DNA from: Acidobacteriota bacterium
GTDB taxonomy: Bacteria; Acidobacteriota; Vicinamibacteria; Vicinamibacterales; UBA2999
Length of the DNA stretch: 64,000 nucleotides
Assembly (NCBI GenBank): GCA_947503365.1
Contig: CANNDT010000004.1
Location: 14,375-78,374 of the forward strand
Direction: 5' to 3'
Every line of letters begins with the position of its first letter. Position 1 is the first letter of the stretch. The notes beneath the pieces were generated by a model that saw only the letters and a program-made list of their open reading frames with translations, searched no databases and was not told the DNA's origin. The translations under genes and the position numbers were made by a program. Below, piece after piece: positions 41,349-59,643 of this stretch.

Positions 41349-42748
41349 CCAATAACGAGGTGCATGTCGTAGTCCTGGCGGCTGGCCAGGGGACGCGGAT
41401 GAAGTCAGCGCTGCCAAAGGTGCTGCATCCAATCGCCGGCCGTTCTCTGATCGAGCACGTGCTTCGCACGGCCCGGACGGTGTCGCCGGCATCGATCACG
41501 CTCGTCGTGGGACACAAGGCGGAGATGGTGCGAAGCCACCTGGCCACCCAGCCCGACCTTCAGTTTGCGCTTCAGGATCCCCAGCTTGGAACGGCCCACG
41601 CCGTTCAGCAGGCCGAGCCGGCGCTGATGGGGCGCACGGGCACCCTGGTGCTGCTCTCCGGCGACGTTCCGCTGCTGACCCCATCCACGCTCACGAGGCT
41701 CCTGACCGCCCATTCTGCGGCCAGTGCGGCCGCGACCGTCATAACCGCGGTGGTCGAACGCCCTTACGGCTACGGACGCATCGTCCGGCACGACGGCCGG
41801 ATCGCACGCATCGTCGAAGAGCGCGACGCCACGCCGGACGAACGCAGGATCCACGAAATTAACAGCGGCATCTACGCCTTTGACCTGGCGACCTTATTCG
41901 AGGCGCTGCGCGCGGTCGCCTCGCAGAATGCCCAGGGCGAGTACTACCTCACCGATCTGGTGGGAATCTACCGGCGCCGCAAGCTGCCAGTCGAAACACT
42001 GGTCGTCGACAACCCTCAGGAGATCCGCGGCATCAACAGCCGGACGGAACTCGCGGAAGTGAGTAGGATCGTGAGACAGACCAAGAACGAGGAGTTGATG
42101 GCCGCCGGGGTCACCATTGTCGACCCGGCGACGACCTACATCGACCCGGACGTCGAGATCGGTGCGGACACGGTGATACACCCGGGTGTGGTGATCGAGG
42201 GACACACGCGCATCGGGGCCGCCTGCGAGATCCAGGCGCACGTCCGCATCTGCGATTCGGAAATCGCCGATCGGGTCACGATCAACAACTTCTGCCTCAT
42301 CGTTGGTGCGCGGGTTGCAGATGGGGTGTCGGTTGGCCCCTTCGCCCACCTTCGTCCGGAGACGAACGTGGGCGCCGGAGCGAAGATCGGCAATTTCGTG
42401 GAGTTGAAGAAGACGACGCTTGGTGCAGGATCCAAGGCCAGCCATCTGAGCTACCTCGGCGATGCGACCATCGGCGCCAACGTCAACATCGGCGCCGGCA
42501 CTATCACGTGCAACTACGACGGAGAAAAAAAGCACGAGACGGTGATTGAAGACGGCGTCTTCATCGGCAGCGACTCGCAGTTGATCGCCCCCGTGCGTGT
42601 GGGGAAGGGCGCCTACGTCGCCGCCGGCTCGTCGATCACCGGGGATGTCCCCGCCGGCTCACTGGGCATCGCCCGCGGGCGCCAGACGAACGTCGAGGGG
42701 TGGGTGGCTCGCAAGAAGAAAGCTCAGGGCTTAGGCCCCAAGCCCTGA
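41345..42748 (+). CDS. glmU: bifunctional UDP-N-acetylglucosamine diphosphorylase / glucosamine-1-phosphate N-acetyltransferase
   Basis: [20 protein letters not shown]; C-terminal left-handed beta-helix hexapeptide repeats. ATGA overlap with rsmI. Confidence 0.9.
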
Positions 42749-42749
42749 G
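42723..42749 (+). repeat. perfect 10-bp stem hairpin (CTCAGGGCTT-aggcccc-AAGCCCTGAG) covering the last codons and stop of glmU
   Basis: Read directly. The TGA stop (42746-42748) lies in the 3' arm, and the glmS ATG follows 11 nt later. Confidence 0.6.
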
Positions 42750-42759
42750 GCCTGTATTT

Positions 42760-44604
42760 ATGTGCGGAATCATCGGCTACATCGGCTCCAAGCCCGTCGT
42801 CCAAGTCCTGATCGAAGGGTTGCGACGAATGGAGTATCGCGGCTACGACTCCGCGGGCGTGGCGCTGGTCAGCCCCGAGGGGATCGCGGTGCGCCGATCG
42901 GCGGGGAAGCTCATCAACCTCGAGAACGCGGTCCGCGATGAGCCGGTCGATGGCCTGTACGGCATCGGCCACACGCGCTGGGCGACGCACGGCCGGCCGA
43001 CGGAGGAGAACGCCCACCCGCACCGCGACTGCACCGGCCGCATTGTCGTCGTGCACAACGGCATCATCGAGAACTACCTGGAACTGAAGAAAGAGCTTCA
43101 GCAACAGGGGCATGTGTTCAAGACCGAAACCGACACCGAAATCGTCGCGCATCTCGTCGAGCGGGAGACGAAGACGGACGGCCTCGAGAACGCCGTGCGC
43201 CGTGCCCTGACGCTGATGCGCGGGATGTTTGCGCTGGTACTGGTGTCGGTCGATGATCCGGAGAAGATCGTCGCCGTCCGCAATGGCCCGCCGATCGTCA
43301 TCGGTCTCGGCAAGGATGAATTCTTTGTCGCGTCCGACGTCCCCGCCATCCTGGCGCACACCCGCGACGTCGTCTTTCTCGGCGACGAGGAGATGGCGAT
43401 CATCACCCGCTCCGGCGTCGAATTCACCGACTACCAGGGGAAGGCGGTGTCCAAGACGACGCAGCGCGTGCTGTGGGACCCGATCGCCGCAGAGAAAGGG
43501 GGCCACAAGCACTTCATGCTCAAGGAGATCTATGAGCAGCCCAGTGCGGCCCGCGACACGATTCTCGGCCGCGTCTCGCTGGAACGTGGACAGATCTTTC
43601 TGCCCGACCTGAGCATCTCTCCGGACGCGTTCAGGGCGCTGCAGAAGGTCACCATCGTCGCGTGCGGCACGTCGTGGCACGCCGGTCTTGTCGGCAAGTA
43701 CCTGATCGAGGCGCTCGCCAGGGTGCCCGTCGAGGTCGACTACGGCTCCGAGTACCGCTACCGCAACCCGATCCTCGCGAAGAATGAACTGACGGTTGTC
43801 ATCACGCAGTCCGGCGAGACGGCCGACACGCTTGCGGCCCTTCGGGAAGCCAAGCGCAAGGGCGCCAGCAGCGTCGCCATCTGCAACGTCGTCGGCAGCA
43901 TGGCCACGCGGGAAGCCGACGGGACGGTCTATACCCATGCCGGCCCAGAGATCGGGGTCGCCTCGACCAAGGCCTTCACCTCGCAGCTGGTCGCACTGCA
44001 GTTGCTCGCGCTCTACATGGCCCAGGTGCGCGAGACGCTCACGAAGACCGAGATTCGCGGCCACATCGAAGAGCTCCTGCAGCTGCCGCAGGTCATCGAG
44101 CAGGCGATCAAAGCGTCGGCAGCGGTGGAGCGCGTCGCGGAGAAGTTCTACAACCGCACCGATTTTCTGTTCCTCGGCCGCGGCATCAACTATCCGATCG
44201 CGCTCGAGGGCGCGCTGAAGCTGAAAGAGATCTCCTATATCCACGCCGAGGGGTACCCGGCGGGCGAGATGAAGCACGGCCCGATCGCGCTGATCGACGA
44301 AAAGATGCCGGTCGTGGCGATTGCGCCCAACGATCATGTCTTCGAGAAGATGATCGGCAACGTGCAGGAAGCCAAGGCGCGCGGTGGGGCAGTGATCGCG
44401 ATTACGACGGAGGGCGATCCGCGCATGGCGGGGGTGCTCGACACCGCCAACGATGTGATCCTGCCGATGCCGGCGACGACGCCGCTCCTCACGCCCGTTG
44501 TGATGACGATCCCGTTGCAACTGCTCGCGTATCACATCGCCGTGCGGCGCGGCTGCGACGTCGATCAGCCGCGCAACCTCGCGAAGTCGGTGACCGTCGA
44601 GTAG
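42760..44604 (+). CDS. glmS: glutamine--fructose-6-phosphate aminotransferase
   Basis: MCGIIGYIG (Cys nucleophile after Met); two SIS domains; canonical C-terminus KSVTVE. Confidence 0.95.
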
Positions 44605-44714
44605 GCCGGCTGAAGCCGGCCTCCACGTGCGATCCTGCGTACGAAGATCCTGCGTACGTTGATCCTGCGTACGAAGATTCTGCGTACGTAGGGGCCGACT
44701 TCAGTCGGCCCTAC
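44601..44714. repeat. REP/REPIN-like doublet: two GTAG-headed hairpins flanking a 4 x 15-bp tandem array
   Basis: GTAG-GCCGGC-TGAA-GCCGGC (44601-44621); GATCCTGCGTACGAA x4 (44631-44690); GTAGGGGCCGAC-TTCA-GTCGGCCCTAC (44688-44714). Confidence 0.7.
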
Positions 44715-44723
44715 AATGGAGGC

Positions 44724-46991
44724 TTGGATCTCCTCTCCAGCCTCAACCCCGAACAACAGGAGGCGGTCCTTCACACGGAAGGACCGCTTCTGATTCTGGC
44801 CGGTGCCGGATCGGGCAAGACCCGGGTTATCGCACACCGCATCGCTCACCTGGTCAGCTCCGGTATCGCCGATCCGGGACGCGTCCTCGCTGTCACCTTC
44901 ACGAACAAGGCGGCGCAGGAGATGCGGACGCGTGTCGAGACGCTCCTGCAGGTCGACTGCCGGCAGATGTGGATCTCGACGTTTCACGCGCTGTGCGCGC
45001 GCCTCCTGCGCCGGGAAGCACCCCACATCGGCCTGTCGCGCGACTTTGTCATCTACGATTCGACCGATCAGCTCAGCGTGATGAAACAGGCGCTGAAGCA
45101 GATCGGCACCGACGACAGCAGCCTCGCGCCGCGCCTCGCGCTCTCGCGGATCAGCCATGCCAAGAACCGGATGGAAGGGCCCGAGACCTTCACCGCGAAC
45201 TCCTGGAACCCTCGCGAGGAACAGATCGGCAAGCTCTTCGCGATCTACGTGAAGGCCTTGAAGGAGGCCAACGCGCTCGACTTCGACGATCTCCTCCTCA
45301 AGACGGTGGAGCTGTTCGAGACGTCGGAACACGTCCGCGATCGCTATGCCGAGAAGTTCCAGTTCCTGATGGTCGATGAGTACCAGGACACCAACCGTCC
45401 GCAGTACCTGCTCGTGCAGCGCCTGGCCGCCCGGCACCGGAATCTGGCGGTCGTCGGCGACCCGGATCAGTCGATTTACAAGTGGCGCGGCGCCGATCTC
45501 AAGAACATCCTTGATTTCGAGCGCGATTTTCCAGAAGTCAAGGTCGTCAAGCTCGAACAGAATTACCGGTCGACCCAGGTGATCCTCGATGCCGCGTCCG
45601 GTGTCATTGCCCAGAACCGCAATCGCAAGGAGAAGCGCCTCTTCACCGAACGAGAGGGCGGCGCCAAGATCCTGCTGTACCGCGCCGCGGACGACCTCGA
45701 CGAGGCCGAGTACATCGCCCGGAGCGCACGAGCGGCGCTTCATGACGACGTCGAGAACACGGTCGCGATTCTGTACCGGACCAATGCCCAGTCGAGAACA
45801 CTGGAAGACGCCCTGCGCAGAGCCGGGACGGCGTACAAGATCATCGGCGGTGTCCGCTTCTACGAGCGCAAGGAGGTCAAGGACGCCCTCGCTTACCTGA
45901 AGCTGGTCCTGACTCCCCACGACAACGTTAGCCTGCGGCGGGTCATCAATGTGCCCGCGCGCGGCGTCGGGAAGGGCGTGATGGAGTCGCTCGAGGCGGT
46001 TGACCTGCCAACCGACGCTGACGTGCCGCCCCTCCTGTCAGGGCTTCAGCCGGCGGCCACCAACGACTCGCTTTGGGTGCGTCTCGTTCACGCCGTCGAC
46101 AAGCGGCTCCTCGCGCCGCGTGCCCTCACCTCGCTGACCACGTTCCGCGATCTGCTGGCGTCGCTCACGGCAATCGCCAGCCAGGAGTCGGTGTCTGTGG
46201 TCCTCGCCAAGGTCCTCGACCAGAGCGGTTATCTGCGGGATCTGCGCGAAGAACACAGCGAAGAAGCCGAGGGGCGCATCGAGAACCTGGCGGAGCTGGT
46301 GTCGGCAGCACGTGAGTACGAAACTCGGAGTCCGGAGCCGTCGCTCGGCGGCTTCGTCGATCAGCTCTCGCTCCTGTCGGACGCTGATGAGCAGTCGGGC
46401 ACCCAGAACGCCAGGGTGCTGATGATGACGTTGCATAGCGCCAAGGGGCTCGAGTTCCCGGTCGTCGTCATCAGCGGTCTCGAGGAGGGACTCTTCCCGC
46501 ACTCCCGCTCCGCGGACGATGAGGCGGAACTGGAGGAGGAGCGACGCCTCTGCTACGTCGGGATCACCCGCGCTGAACGCCGGCTGGTACTTACGTCCGC
46601 CGCCAGGCGCCGGGTGTTCGGCGAGTATCAGTCATCGGAGCCCTCGCGCTTCATCGAAGAGATCCCACCCGCGCTTATTGAAGAGGTTCCGTCGAACTTC
46701 GTCTCGCCGTACTCCTCGTCTTTTTCGCAGTACCGATCGTCGGGGTACGGGAAGGGCAGCGGCTACCGCGGCCGCACGCGCGAGGAGACGCCGTCGTATT
46801 CGTACGAGGATGAGGATCAGTCAGTACCCGGGGGCCTGAAGCCTGGACTGCGCGTCAAGCATGCGCAGTTCGGGATCGGCACGGTGCTGAGCGTCGAGCC
46901 TCTCGACGACGACACCAAGCTCGTCGTCCGGTTCAACACCGTCGGGCAGAAGACGCTCCGCGCGAAGTTCGCGAAGCTGGAAGTCGCGTAG
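44724..46991 (+). CDS. pcrA: ATP-dependent DNA helicase PcrA/UvrD
   Basis: LLILAGAGSGKTRVIAHR (Walker A), VDEYQDTN, and a C-terminal Tudor-like tail. TTG start. Confidence 0.9.
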   Translation: MDLLSSLNPEQQEAVLHTEGPLLILAGAGSGKTRVIAHRIAHLVSSGIADPGRVLAVTFTNKAAQEMRTRVETLLQVDCRQMWISTFHALCARLLRREAPHIGLSRDFVIYDSTDQLSVMKQALKQIGTDDSSLAPRLALSRISHAKNRMEGPETFTANSWNPREEQIGKLFAIYVKALKEANALDFDDLLLKTVELFETSEHVRDRYAEKFQFLMVDEYQDTNRPQYLLVQRLAARHRNLAVVGDPDQSIYKWRGADLKNILDFERDFPEVKVVKLEQNYRSTQVILDAASGVIAQNRNRKEKRLFTEREGGAKILLYRAADDLDEAEYIARSARAALHDDVENTVAILYRTNAQSRTLEDALRRAGTAYKIIGGVRFYERKEVKDALAYLKLVLTPHDNVSLRRVINVPARGVGKGVMESLEAVDLPTDADVPPLLSGLQPAATNDSLWVRLVHAVDKRLLAPRALTSLTTFRDLLASLTAIASQESVSVVLAKVLDQSGYLRDLREEHSEEAEGRIENLAELVSAAREYETRSPEPSLGGFVDQLSLLSDADEQSGTQNARVLMMTLHSAKGLEFPVVVISGLEEGLFPHSRSADDEAELEEERRLCYVGITRAERRLVLTSAARRRVFGEYQSSEPSRFIEEIPPALIEEVPSNFVSPYSSSFSQYRSSGYGKGSGYRGRTREETPSYSYEDEDQSVPGGLKPGLRVKHAQFGIGTVLSVEPLDDDTKLVVRFNTVGQKTLRAKFAKLEVA

Positions 46992-47084
46992 CCGCAACGC
47001 AAAGCTGAAGCTTTGCGCCACAGAAGCGTACGTAGGGCAACTCTTCAGTTCGTACGTGGGGCAAAGCTTCAGCTTTGCCTAGGG
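46988..47084. repeat. REP/REPIN-like doublet, variant stems (CGCAAAGC-TGAA-GCTTTGCG ... GGCAAAGC-TTCA-GCTTTGCC)
   Basis: It fills the whole gap between convergent pcrA and gyrA and shares the CGTACGTAG core and the TGAA/TTCA loops with the other copies. Confidence 0.6.
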
Positions 47085-49587: not shown

Positions 49588-49611
49588 GAGCCGGCTCAAG
49601 CCGGCCCCTAC
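49588..49611 (-). repeat. solo REP-like unit (minus strand GTAG-GGGCCGGC-TTGA-GCCGGCTC)
   Basis: It lies between the gyrB stop and the gyrA start. 26 of 28 positions are identical to the left half of the mnmE copy. Confidence 0.55.
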
Positions 49612-49622
49612 GTACCGTTGGT

Positions 49623-58260: not shown

Positions 58261-59643
58261 GTGGCGTTTGCAACTGACGACTCCATCGTTGCGATAGCCA
58301 CACCATCCGGCCGCGGCGGGATCGGCGTGGTGCGGATCAGCGGTCCCAACGCGCTCACCATCGCCCGGCAGATCCTCGATCACAAGAGCTCGCTGACGCC
58401 GCGCTATGCGACCGTGACTCGCGTGACGAGTGGGACGGCGCAGGACGAGGTGGTCGCCACCTACTTCAAATCTCCGCACTCCTACACGGGAGAACACGTG
58501 GTCGAAATCAGCGCGCACGGTAGCCCCGTCGTGCTGCGCGGGATCGTCCGCGCCGCAATGGATGCGGGCGCCCGGCTCGCCGAGCCCGGAGAGTTCACGC
58601 TGCGCGCGTTCCTGAACGGCAAACGCGATCTGGTGCAGGCCGAGGCGGTCGGCGATCTGATTGCCGCGGCGACGCCGCTCCAGGCGAGGATCGCATTCGA
58701 CCAGCTTGAAGGCACGCTGACAAAGCAGATTCGGGAGATCGATGGCCCGCTGTTCGAGCTGATCGCGAGGCTCGAAGCGTCGCTTGATTTTGCCGACGAG
58801 GGCTATCACTTCGTGGCGCCTCAAGAGGCCGTTGCGACGTTGCGCACCGCGATCGCTCGGCTCGATGACCTGCTGGCGGACGCGGGCCGTGGCCGCATGA
58901 TCCGGGACGGCGCCACCCTGGTGATAGCCGGGCGAGTAAACGTAGGCAAGTCAAGCATTTTCAATAAGTTAGCAGGTTCAGAGCGAGCCATAGTCACGGC
59001 GATTCCTGGCACCACGCGTGACCTCGTTACTGAGGCGATCGACATCGAGGGCCTCGCAGTGTCGGTGGTCGACACCGCCGGATGGAGAGACACCCGGGAT
59101 GTCGTCGAGCGCGAAGGCGTGGCGCGCGGCCAGCAGGCGCGGGCCGTCGCCGGCCTGGTCCTCATCGTGCTCGATCGCAGCGAACCGCTCACCGAGGACG
59201 ATCGTCGACTGCTCGAGCAGACGGCGGGACAGCGGCGCATTGTCGTTCTCAACAAGTGCGATCTGGAGCCAGCCCCGGGCCGGCTCAAGCCGGCCCCCAC
59301 GTACGTAGAGGCCGACTTCAGTCGGCCTGAGGCGATCGAAGTCTCCGCTGTCACCGGCGCCGGGATCGATGAGCTCCGTCGCGCCATTGCATCGGCGTTG
59401 ACCGGATCCGAGGTCCTGCGTGACACCGCGGCGATTTCCAACGTGCGGCACATCAAGCTGCTCGAGGATGCGCGTGAACACCTGACGCGCGCGCACAGCG
59501 CGGCGGAAGCCGGCGACACGCCAGAGGAGTTTCTCCTGACCGATCTCCAGGCAGCGCGTACGAGCTTCGACGAAGTGGTCGGCGTGCGTACGAGCGAGGA
59601 TGTGCTGTCGCACATCTTCGCGACCTTCTGTATCGGAAAGTAG
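58261..59643 (+). CDS. mnmE: tRNA modification GTPase MnmE
   Basis: G1 GRVNVGKSSIFNKL, G3 DTAGWRD, G4 LNKCD, C-terminal CIGK. GTG start. Confidence 0.95.
   Translation: MAFATDDSIVAIATPSGRGGIGVVRISGPNALTIARQILDHKSSLTPRYATVTRVTSGTAQDEVVATYFKSPHSYTGEHVVEISAHGSPVVLRGIVRAAMDAGARLAEPGEFTLRAFLNGKRDLVQAEAVGDLIAAATPLQARIAFDQLEGTLTKQIREIDGPLFELIARLEASLDFADEGYHFVAPQEAVATLRTAIARLDDLLADAGRGRMIRDGATLVIAGRVNVGKSSIFNKLAGSERAIVTAIPGTTRDLVTEAIDIEGLAVSVVDTAGWRDTRDVVEREGVARGQQARAVAGLVLIVLDRSEPLTEDDRRLLEQTAGQRRIVVLNKCDLEPAPGRLKPAPTYVEADFSRPEAIEVSAVTGAGIDELRRAIASALTGSEVLRDTAAISNVRHIKLLEDAREHLTRAHSAAEAGDTPEEFLLTDLQAARTSFDEVVGVRTSEDVLSHIFATFCIGK
59277..59328. repeat. REP/REPIN-like doublet inside the mnmE ORF
   Basis: GGGCCGGC-TCAA-GCCGGCCC CCACGTACGTAG AGGCCGAC-TTCA-GTCGGCCT. 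27 of 28 positions match 44683-44710 and 26 of 28 match 49588-49615. Confidence 0.65.

Follow-up and report, generated by a model that had tools for sequence, protein, structure and literature searches.

Inverted REP hairpins enclosing a 15-nt tandem array occupy the glmS–pcrA spacer of a soil acidobacterium

We found that the spacer between glmS and the following helicase gene of an acidobacterial genome consists almost entirely of two GC-rich hairpins in inverted orientation that enclose a 4 × 15-nt tandem array (positions 44601–44714 of the 64,000-nucleotide stretch of DNA that we analysed, hereafter the window). The most probable reading, to which we assign a probability of about 0.75, is that an inverted pair of REP units with inward-facing tags was inserted here and that its linker was later amplified locally. 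The arrangement is the 'TT dimer' of Di Nocera nomenclature and the iREP-linker-REP of Ton-Hoang. Elements of this kind are known, but the lineage has been little studied, and the amplified middle is a modestly new twist.

The host is a soil acidobacterium of the order Vicinamibacterales, and the element sits between glmS and a gene for a PcrA/UvrD-type helicase. The glmS gene (42760–44604, + strand; ORF 42700–44604) has its likely ATG start at 42760 (MCGIIGY...) and a TAG stop at 44602–44604; it scored 851 bits against TIGR01135 (cut-off 418), with the match beginning at residue 22. The helicase gene (44724–46991, + strand) starts with TTG at 44724 and scored 846 bits against TIGR01073, slightly under the 911-bit cut-off. 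Of the 119 bases between the two genes, about 110 are occupied by the element. What follows it is the native pcrA leader, TACAATGGAGGC, retained together with the TTG start (44712–44726, + strand); it matches the 3' portion of the short spacers that relatives have (...TAGAATGGAGGC ttg).

The source is a metagenome-assembled genome of 189 contigs, 95% complete and with 8% estimated contamination, and short repeats in such an assembly might have been collapsed or expanded. However, an identical spacer with four units is present in a second assembly record (ENA ERZ28613056, scaffold_972), where it lies on a different contig (45 kb versus 96 kb). Moreover, the 60-nt array is shorter than the read length, and reads can be placed because the units differ among themselves. 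An assembly artefact is thus very improbable, and the first-pass annotation of a hairpin doublet and a 4 × 15-bp array filling the spacer held on re-reading the sequence. The idea that the contig (C4) is a contaminant out of a REP-rich relative was not supported; the genome's family B units also occur on it.

The left hairpin (44603–44622; C4:58977–58996) belongs to the - strand. On the + strand it reads AGGCCGGC-TGAA-GCCGGCCT and on the - strand AGGCCGGC-TTCA-GCCGGCCT, and the unit is inverted because the family loop is TTCA, 3' of the tag. Its tag, GTGG, corresponds to CCAC at 44623–44626 on the + strand (GTGGAGGCCGGCTTCAGCCGGCCT matched on the - strand), within an inner tag region or linker, CCACGTGC (44623–44630), that reads GCAC-GTGG and then the stem on the - strand. 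The right unit (44688–44714, + strand) is in direct orientation, with the tag GTAG at 44688–44691, the hairpin GGGCCGAC-TTCA-GTCGGCCC at 44692–44711 and a 3' extension (C)TAC to 44714. Both units therefore carry the mark of a REP, a short GC-rich hairpin with GT[AG]G at its 5' foot (GTAG on the right, GTGG on the left).

Between them, the array (44631–44690, + strand) is contiguous and in phase, with units at 44631–44645, 44646–44660, 44661–44675 and 44676–44690 that read, in order, GATCCTGCGTACGAA, GATCCTGCGTACGTT, GATCCTGCGTACGAA and GATTCTGCGTACGTA. Each unit is a 5' tag region without a hairpin (GATCCTGCGTACG plus 2 nt), and the higher-order structure is a 30-mer present twice. TRF fitted a period of 15 with 3.9 copies (88% matches, score 95) and, better, a period of 30 with 2.0 copies (96% matches, score 111). 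The 15-mers had been described as each containing GATC and CGTACG; CGTACG is indeed in all four units, while GATC is in units 1–3 and reads GATT in unit 4.

The predicted DNA fold of the element reached -35.8 kcal/mol (z -6.2) and the RNA fold of 151 nt reached -74.4 kcal/mol (z -5.8); none of 200 shuffles equalled either value. In the minimum-energy DNA fold, the left unit pairs with the right unit, the arms matching at 16 of 18 positions, and the array is predicted to pair with itself into a third hairpin. On mRNA, the element would make three stable hairpins, of which the first begins at the stop codon and the last stops 12 nt short of the TTG at 44724. The sequences that follow the hairpins are CTCCAC and TACAATGG, with no U tract of the kind that marks an intrinsic terminator, and a promoter and terminator scan of 44300–45000 returned no terminator-like or promoter-like site. 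In a permissive scan of 40–50 kb, no Rfam family reached its gathering score; the sole hit, mir-BART20, scored 24.8 bits (E = 0.24) where 70 bits are required, and is put down to chance.

The first-pass annotation had proposed a GTAG-tagged REP element, and a genome-wide census confirmed this. With a unit defined by a GT[AG]G tag, a stem of 7 bp or more and a TT[C/T/G]A loop, the genome contains 153 perfect-stem units and the reversed-sequence control contains none. Among 4-nt hairpin loops genome-wide, TGAA and TTCA far outnumber all others, and the family polarity places the GT[AG]G tag 5' of a hairpin with the loop TTCA. Across this superfamily, the tag and the TTCA/TTTA loop are constant, and the stems are many, different and self-complementary; in many of the genomes such units lie beside RAYT (Y1 HUH) genes. 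A long 5' extension (GATC...CGTACGTAG) was rejected as a family consensus, as there is no conserved position upstream of (CGTA)CGTAG. The stem class of this element has 6–9 copies in the host genome, mostly on its own contig. It was found in 14 of 61 genomes of the family and in none of the controls, with 6 copies counted in the host and, in related genera, 141 in G019, 64 in G023 and 63 in G053, and exact 25-mers of the class recur in many Vicinamibacterales metagenome-assembled genomes.

Y1_Tnp matches were confined to two contigs of the host genome, C2 and C9, and the window, as the annotation had noted, is free of RAYT genes. A single bona fide RAYT was found, on C2; it scored 107.6 bits against NF047646 (cut-off 80) and has intact HVH and YYDH motifs. 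The motif is thus not restricted to a few loci in a genome devoid of a repeat family and of RAYT-like genes. The expectation that a RAYT gene would be flanked by such units held in part: the C2 gene has tagged hairpins on both flanks, in opposite orientation, but they belong to a different stem class (family A), and the matching class was found in a relative, where a RAYT (G024:C2, 111 bits) is flanked by GTGG-GGGCCGGC-TTTA-GCCGGCCC. Searches of the 95%-complete host assembly by HMM and tblastn did not find a cognate RAYT for the element's class; tblastn returned the C2 gene only, at 39% identity to the class-C RAYT. Among relatives, there are at least 17 RAYT-type loci in 9 genomes, a count that includes hits scoring below the NCBIfam cut-off as well as one gene represented by two overlapping loci, and each has a stem class of its own, combined with the common tag and loop.

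The synteny of glmS and pcrA is conserved among relatives, and in 14 of 20 of them the spacer measures only 4–25 nt and ends ...TAGAATGGAGGC ttg. The element was therefore inserted, with the ancestral TAG stop on one side and the ribosome-binding region of pcrA on the other; its exact breakpoints are uncertain because the closest comparators belong to different genera. The glmS stop is TAG in 18 of 20 related genomes, seven of them with GAG-TAG, with or without an insert. Judged from these comparisons, the TAG is ancestral, and the left REP adjoins the glmS stop but does not supply it. This bears on the proposal that the left unit is headed by a GTAG overlapping the stop codon. The outer GTAG (44601–44604, + strand) is indeed composed of the final G of the glmS codon GAG and the TAG stop, but it is not the tag of the left unit, which is the inner GTGG; the outer GTAG belongs to a conserved glmS end (...GAG/GAA-TAG) that also occurs in relatives without the insert, and here it doubles as the complement to the unit's 3' CTAC extension. 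One genus has an independent single REP in the same gap, and palindromic inserts have settled there independently in at least five genera. Mobilisation or cleavage by a RAYT has indirect support from presence and absence at orthologous sites and from patchy copy number; no transposition or excision event was seen directly.

A compact inverted pair, which the annotation had correctly described, lies in frame inside mnmE (59277–59330), with stems GCCGGC on the left and GCCGAC on the right, the same two stems as in the element, and a core CCACGTACGTAG. The spacer had been read as a simple expansion of this 12-nt core. We found instead that each 15-mer copies the right REP's 5' tag region (GATCCTGCGTACGTAG), while the hairpin itself was not multiplied. 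The doublet had also been likened to a REPIN, and in the predicted DNA fold the two inverted REPs do form one long hairpin. A REPIN in the sense of a doublet replicating at fixed spacing was nevertheless rejected: at 80 Vicinamibacterales loci, the linkers of inverted pairs range from 12 to 128 nt, all four orientations are present (36, 24, 21 and 19), and the compact doublet with the 12-nt core occurs in only 2 of 61 genomes.

The data show that a REP pair was inserted into an ancestral glmS–pcrA spacer of about 20 nt, between the TAG stop and the pcrA ribosome-binding region, leaving both genes intact. They also show the history of the repeat: the right-hand REP had its 5' tag region (GATCCTGCGTACGTAG), minus the hairpin, duplicated; the two copies diverged (GTAG to GAAG and GTTG), and the resulting 30-mer was duplicated once more. 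The mechanism of amplification is inferred, as is any effect on expression; hairpin-associated replication slippage has, in our estimate, an even chance of being right. In the host genome, 25 of the 153 REP units (16%) touch a tandem repeat of period 10–45, compared with 34 of 978 other perfect hairpins (3.5%) and 2.1% of random windows (Fisher p = 1.6e-8). This 3–5-fold excess of tandem repeats at REPs relative to other hairpins argues that more than plain hairpin slippage is at work. The majority of the repeats at REPs are 15–21-nt partial units at the 5' or 3' foot, and the C2 RAYT gene carries 17-nt stutters on both flanks. A parallel was found in a related genus (G016), where an inverted pair with other stems encloses a 20-mer × 5.1 array at a non-homologous locus. 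The 20-mer contains GATCCCGCGTACGTAG, and its core is nearly equal to that of the 15-mer; the parallel carries ascertainment bias because it was found by similarity search. No further REP-linked copy of the array turned up in 61 family genomes or in the metagenome scan.

The excess of repeats at REPs and the stutters beside the RAYT gene would also suit amplification by the enzyme itself, in which a RAYT binds the REP, cleaves single-stranded DNA at C/T (C|T) sites in the linker or iREP and joins the ends by strand transfer. We regard this as the main alternative, although the odds are against it. The same tentative standing applies to the two forms it might take, rolling-circle-like local amplification in which the stretch from one cleavage site to another is gained or lost, or precise excision of hairpins from a direct REP array that leaves the linkers in tandem. 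Every 15-mer has a C|T site (CC|TG in units 1–3, TC|TG in unit 4), and the G016 units contain GC|TAC, but such a dinucleotide in a 15-mer is expected by chance. The excision form is consistent with direct REP arrays in relatives, whose 15–19-nt linkers of like composition, such as GAGATCGTACGTGG and GAAGATCCGTACGT, are approximately what the 15-mers would be if hairpins were removed. The E. coli enzyme TnpA_REP cleaves and strand-transfers in vitro (PMC3333891). On the other hand, no cognate enzyme for the element's stem class was found in the assembly, and ordinary duplication explains the higher-order 30-mer equally well. We know of no RAYT that has been seen to yield products of excision or strand transfer in vivo.

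A broader and more doubtful proposition is that the hairpin-less tag arrays (the 15-mer × 4 here and the 20-mer × 5 of G016), together with the 15–21-nt half-REP stutters at some 10–16% of REPs, were left in vivo by RAYTs that cut DNA and transferred strands at C|T beside a bound REP. In that case they would record, in nature, how RAYTs amplify and remodel REP clusters, and a RAYT could act on stem classes beyond those on its own flanks, the tag and the TTCA loop being the only constant parts.

A selected cis-regulatory function for the array is unlikely. It could act as a series of sites for a protein (GATC and CGTACG, repeated every 15 bp) or as an RNA structure that would make pcrA expression independent of glmS or protect the 3' end of glmS, and three strong predicted RNA hairpins between stop and start codons, as well as the repeated colonisation of the gap, speak for such a role. 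By analogy, REPs in E. coli reportedly stabilise upstream mRNA and, when they lie within about 15 nt of the stop codon, lower translation of the upstream gene. Yet the array is private to the host lineage, most relatives have no insert at all, there is no U tract, promoter-like site or Rfam family, and the units are already decaying (GAAG, GTTG, GATT). We also considered whether the array is translated, extending the helicase at its N terminus by (DPAYE/V)4. The frame of the helicase does stay open across the whole spacer (DPAYE-DPAYV-DPAYE-DSAYV), and in a metagenome scan for two adjacent 15-mers, which gave three matches, none of them REP-linked, one contig had a 15-mer GATCCTGCGTACGCC repeat that resembles a coding DPAYA repeat. 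However, this extension is hardly credible and was rejected, as the stretch is made of REP hairpins, there is no ATG, GTG or TTG in frame upstream of the TTG at 44724, and nearly every relative's helicase aligns from the same (M)DLL... N-terminus, right after the short spacer.

This REP pair shares many features with the GTAG REPs surveyed by Di Nocera, De Gregorio and Rocco (2013, PMC3733652). These have a GTAG/GTGG tag at the foot of a 7–9-bp GC-rich stem with a short loop; they occur as singletons, dimers and clusters, including dimers with tags inside and variable spacers and heterodimers with different stems; their termini often coincide with TAG stops; some copies lie in frame inside genes; and they are associated with tyrosine transposases. 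In that survey, Acidobacteria appear with TIR-flanked tyrosine transposases only, whereas the Vicinamibacterales genome studied here has bona fide REP-flanked RAYTs. In contrast to the REPs described there, the TAG here is ancestral rather than REP-supplied, and the spacer is a tandem array of a hairpin-less tag region, of which no description was found in that paper. Direct and inverted REP clusters occur in relatives, and the element itself has the iREP-linker-REP arrangement with an amplified linker that is typical of BIME-type clusters. Ton-Hoang et al. (2012, PMC3333891) reported that E. coli TnpA_REP needs a 5' GTAG, cleaves C|T in iREPs (also inside CTAC) and linkers, and by strand transfer builds tandem copies and linker variants in vitro. 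The BIME-2 and atypical BIMEs and the REPtron (PMC3333891) resemble our case in local tandem amplification, in linkers and copy numbers that differ between strains and in a RAYT bordered by its own REPs. They differ in that the whole REP-linker-iREP module is amplified in BIME-2, compared with a 15-nt linker/tag piece without a hairpin here; furthermore, E. coli REPs need a mismatch whereas the stems here are perfect, and the RAYTs here are known from sequence. The REPINs of Pseudomonas (Bertels and Rainey 2011, PMC3116915) likewise consist of two inverted REPs that fold into one long hairpin and are associated with single-copy RAYTs, but here the spacing is not conserved, no doublet type is in excess, the tags point inward and the compact doublet is nearly unique.

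The order examined here, a soil acidobacterial one, displays the full REP/RAYT pattern with a signature of unusual clarity, namely a constant GT[AG]G tag, a constant TTCA/TTTA loop and stems that differ with each RAYT gene, and is therefore a good natural data set for what a RAYT reads. To our knowledge, REP/RAYT studies have been almost confined to Proteobacteria, and enzyme-driven local amplification in REP/BIME biology has been proposed from in vitro work and never seen in vivo. The strong enrichment of partial-unit stutters at REPs over other hairpins is a simple, countable trait that could tell replication slippage from such amplification. For annotation, elements of this type can fill gaps inside operons, adjoin stop codons without supplying them and sit in frame in essential genes. 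Other units were found nearby in the window. The gap after the helicase gene (46992–47081) holds an inverted pair with GCAAAGC stems, TGAA/TTCA loops, CGTACGT[AG]G tags and a 24-nt partial-unit duplication, and a solo unit at 49588–49616 reads GGTACGTAGGG-GCCGGC-TTGA-GCCGGC on the - strand. A 16-mer, GATCCYGCGTACGTAG, is no general appendage of the family and clusters in two arrays only.

The glmS-pcrA spacer (window 44601-44714) carries two inverted hairpins with four 15-mers between them, and its sequence exactly matched the layout described in the first-pass annotation. The glmS 3' end reads ...GTC GAG TAG, with the stop at 44602-44604. On the + strand the left hairpin, from 44603, reads AGGCCGGC-TGAA-GCCGGCCT, then CCACGTGC. 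The four in-phase 15-mers (GATCCTGCGTACGAA, GATCCTGCGTACGTT, GATCCTGCGTACGAA and GATTCTGCGTACGTA) occupy 44631-44690, and the right hairpin, GTAG-GGGCCGAC-TTCA-GTCGGCCC-TAC, is continuous with the last of them and ends at 44714, the helicase start (TTG, 44724) lying nine bases past this end. The flanking genes were identified as glmS (TIGR01135, 851 bits) and a PcrA/UvrD-family helicase gene (TIGR01073, 846 bits, slightly below the cut-off). Folded as DNA, the element reached -35.8 kcal/mol (z -6.2 versus shuffled controls), and its two hairpin units paired together; the RNA fold reached -74.4 kcal/mol (z -5.8) and comprised three hairpins, the middle one being the array. The spacer is identical in a second public assembly (ENA ERZ28613056, a 45-kb scaffold), so an assembly artefact is unlikely.

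Counting as a REP unit any perfect stem of at least 7 bp with a TTCA, TTTA or TTGA loop and GT[AG]G at its 5' foot, we found 153 units in the whole source genome (G000; 4.69 Mb, 189 contigs, 65% GC) and none in its reversed sequence, a genome-wide family that upholds the REP identity first proposed from the sequence alone. TGAA and TTCA were by far the most frequent 4-nt hairpin loops in this genome. About 110 units belong to family A (stems CGCGCACCC, CGCGTGGCC and similar), 25 to family B (stem GTCCGSC, usually with the longer tag CGTACGTAGT) and 2, both inside the window, to a GCAAAGC class. Family C (GGCCGGC/GGCCGAC), the class of the element, has 7 perfect units, 4 of them on the element's contig, or 6-9 by looser patterns. 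Most G000 copies with GGCCGRC stems lie within 33 kb of contig C4 (58977-92173; window 44603 onward, past the window end), at glmS/pcrA, after pcrA, at gyrB/gyrA, in mnmE, at C4:81520-81590 and at C4:92146, with only about 3 elsewhere; this clustering suggests local hopping or local duplication. The pair at C4:81553 is a hybrid of a family C left unit and a family B right unit. Of 61 genomes sampled from the taxonomic family, 47 lacked the family C pattern, and three genera carried 141, 64 and 63 copies (all reversed controls 0). As far as sequence can tell, this spread is patchy and burst-like, as expected of repeats that depend on a REP-associated Y1 transposase (RAYT).

A genome-wide RAYT search, suggested by the first-pass annotation, located one bona fide REP-flanked gene, on contig C2 (NF047646, 107.6 bits, cut-off 80; HVH and YYDH motifs visible). 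Family A hairpins lie on both sides of it in opposite orientations. In its flanks (L002, 1160-1225 and 1940-2010) the family A distal arm GTCGCGTGCCC (locus + strand) is repeated about three times with a 17-nt period, and each run ends in a complete family A hairpin. A second, RAYT-like gene on C9 (L001, G000:C9:24882-28205) scored 67.7 bits with NF047646, below the cut-off; it has an apparent long N-terminal extension and is flanked by GGGGTCAGACCCC/GGGGTCTGACCCC palindromes, not GTAG hairpins. No family C RAYT was found in the G000 assembly. Among relatives, at least 17 RAYT-type loci with flanking hairpins were found in nine genera, a count that takes in some sub-cut-off NCBIfam matches and one gene represented by two overlapping loci. 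Every locus has a stem class of its own; GT[AG]G is always upstream, one side shows the loop TTCA/TTTA, and the opposite side shows the inverted form, TGAA/TAAA ... CTAC/CCAC. The RAYT on G024:C2 (111 bits) has the flank GTGG-GGGCCGGC-TTTA-GCCGGCCC, which is family C, and one G023 RAYT has family B flanks that include a five-fold direct array of period 37. Judged from these comparisons, the REP/RAYT reading passes its main tests.

Synteny of glmS and pcrA is kept across the taxonomic family and order, and among 20 relatives 14 have a 4-25-nt spacer, with TAG-ACGACGGTAGAATAGAGGC-ttg as the typical sequence. The final 12-13 nt of the relatives' spacer (TA[G/C]AATGGAGGC) are kept here directly after the right hairpin; the native pcrA leader is thus retained, and an element of ~107 nt sits between it and the stop codon. 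Of the 20 relatives, 18 close glmS with TAG, including 7 with GAG-TAG, with or without an insert, indicating that the GTAG is ancestral and is abutted by the REP. It had been described as the head of the left unit, and its overlap with GAG and TAG stands, but it is not the REP's own head. It may have been used as a landing site or as the sequence complementary to the 3' CTAC extension of the unit; GTAG termini have already been noted to fall frequently on TAG stops (Di Nocera et al. 2013, PMC3733652). In G007 the same gap is filled by one REP of independent origin and different stem, three other genera have unrelated palindromic inserts there, and one more has a long insert with little symmetry. 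This gap tolerates structured inserts or attracts them. Those in G006 (L007) and G022 (L011) are unrelated 83-115-nt sequences with long inverted repeats of short tandem units, for example GTCAAAGGTCAAAGGTGGAAGG..., and that in G019 (L004) has 121 nt and little evident symmetry; they would represent further types of palindromic element.

The first hairpin begins at the last base of the glmS stop codon, and the third ends 12 nt before the TTG start (9 nt with the TAC extension included); no U tract was found at the element's hairpins. REPs in E. coli protect mRNA 3' ends, and a REP no more than about 15 nt from a stop codon lowers translation there. On that basis the output of glmS and pcrA may plausibly be altered to a modest extent. 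Because most relatives have no insert and the units are decaying, we favour a selfish or neutral element that the host tolerates.

The polarity is the same at all RAYT flanks and in all abundant copies, with the tag on the 5' side of a hairpin that has the loop TTCA/TTTA. The left unit of the element has the loop TGAA and is therefore inverted, with the inner GTGG as its tag (- strand match GTGGAGGCCGGCTTCAGCCGGCCT), so the pair has its tags inside. The inverted doublet had been read as a REPIN, which replicates as a unit at fixed spacing. We rejected this: in 80 Vicinamibacterales loci neighbouring units took all four orientations (36, 24, 21 and 19 times), tag-inside pairs had linkers of 12 to 128 nt with no favoured length, and the compact pair with a 12-nt palindromic core occurred in only 2 of 61 genomes (once in G000, in mnmE, and once in G023, as five tandem repeats). 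The arrangement is a mosaic of single units, like the BIMEs of E. coli. The element and the mnmE pair share the same heterodimer, GCCGGC left and GCCGAC right, a hint that this particular pair was copied whole on one or more occasions.

The mnmE pair (window 59277-59330) is in frame and encodes PGRLKPAPTYVEADFSRP between the NKCD (G4) and SAV (G5) motifs. This loop is ~5-14 residues shorter in 23 relatives and varies greatly among them, so the pair occupies a tolerant site. In the gap after the helicase gene (46992-47081) we found a variant pair with GCAAAGC stems, the same loops, CGTACGT[AG]G tags and a 24-nt duplication of tag, half stem and loop; the stop of a - strand gene (CTA, 47079-47081) directly adjoins the hairpin, the same geometry as at glmS. 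At L040 (G023:C77:9050-9540) a ~110-nt unit, which combines a compact REP pair with a ribosome-binding site, the ATG and the initial ~10 codons of the gene downstream, stands five times in tandem, placing four decoy gene starts ahead of the real one.

The last 15-mer of the element plus one base, GATTCTGCGTACGTAG, is the tag region of the right REP, and the other three have this sequence, too, with GAAG or GTTG in place of GTAG. What was multiplied in tandem is therefore the tag region, with no hairpin. TRF fitted the array with period 15 (3.9 copies) and better with period 30 (2.0 copies, 96% matches); this match and the a-b-a-b' order indicate that a 15-nt duplication was followed by divergence and then by a 30-nt duplication. 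The array has parallels. One in G016, 5.1 copies of a 20-mer containing GATCCCGCGTACGTAG, one base off the element's sequence, lies at another locus, between an epimerase-type gene and a PBP1A gene, where two family B hairpins with their tags inside enclose it; a shorter version occurs in G020. The linkers of direct REP arrays in relatives are 15-19 nt long and similarly composed, for example GAGATCGTACGTGG and GAAGATCCGTACGT. A 15-mer, GATCCTGCGTACGCC, repeated more than seven times at L221 (Ga0123338_10000167, 2700-2830) inside an apparently coding DPAYA repeat was rejected as a related array, the likeness being by chance and without a REP link.

Such stutters were in excess at REPs. In G000, TRF repeats of period 10-45 touched 25 of 153 REP units, against 34/978 for other perfect hairpins and 2.1% for random windows (Fisher p = 1.6e-8); with periods limited to 10-24, 15/153 and 33/978 were touched (p = 9e-4). 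Most of these repeats are 15-21-nt partial units. The tag, with or without the 5' arm, is repeated before the hairpin on C39, C65, C34, C93 and at C4:13442, and the 3' arm after it at both RAYT gene flanks and on C100, C125 and C175; a 24-nt case is the copy that follows the helicase gene (47027-47072).

Two processes could account for the array. Slippage of replication at a stalled hairpin calls for no enzyme and would explain duplications that start or end at a hairpin foot or loop, on either side; we put the probability that it made the array at about 50%. RAYT cleavage and strand transfer, the second, is the less likely of the two. The E. coli enzyme, TnpA_REP, binds REPs via the 5' GTAG, cleaves single strands at C|T, both within the inverted partner (also inside CTAC) and in linkers, and yields tandem products and linker variants by strand transfer, from which rolling-circle-like local amplification was proposed (Ton-Hoang et al., PMC3333891). 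An enzymatic contribution is favoured by the 3-5-fold higher frequency of tandem repeats at REPs than at other hairpins, the stutters on both RAYT gene flanks and the C|T in each 15-mer (CC|TG in units 1-3, TC|TG in unit 4), although this dinucleotide has low information content and the absence of a family C RAYT from G000 weighs against it.

GTAG REPs, tag-inside dimers with variable spacers, stop-codon overlap and intragenic copies have been described (PMC3733652), as has local amplification of BIMEs (PMC3333891). For Acidobacteria the Di Nocera survey listed only TIR-flanked tyrosine transposases (PMC3733652), whereas the Vicinamibacterales studied here have a REP/RAYT system, which may be new. 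The amplification of a hairpin-less tag piece and the measured excess of partial-unit stutters at REPs may be new as well.

Exact family C 25-mers also occur in MAGs labelled as other phyla; the REP/RAYT pair could have spread horizontally, or contigs could have been mis-binned. The 25-mers were found in the Acidimicrobiia MAG VFYY01 (L108, L151 and L174, including long direct arrays) and in a Chloroflexia (L118), a Burkholderiales (L156) and a Thermoanaerobaculia MAG (L143).
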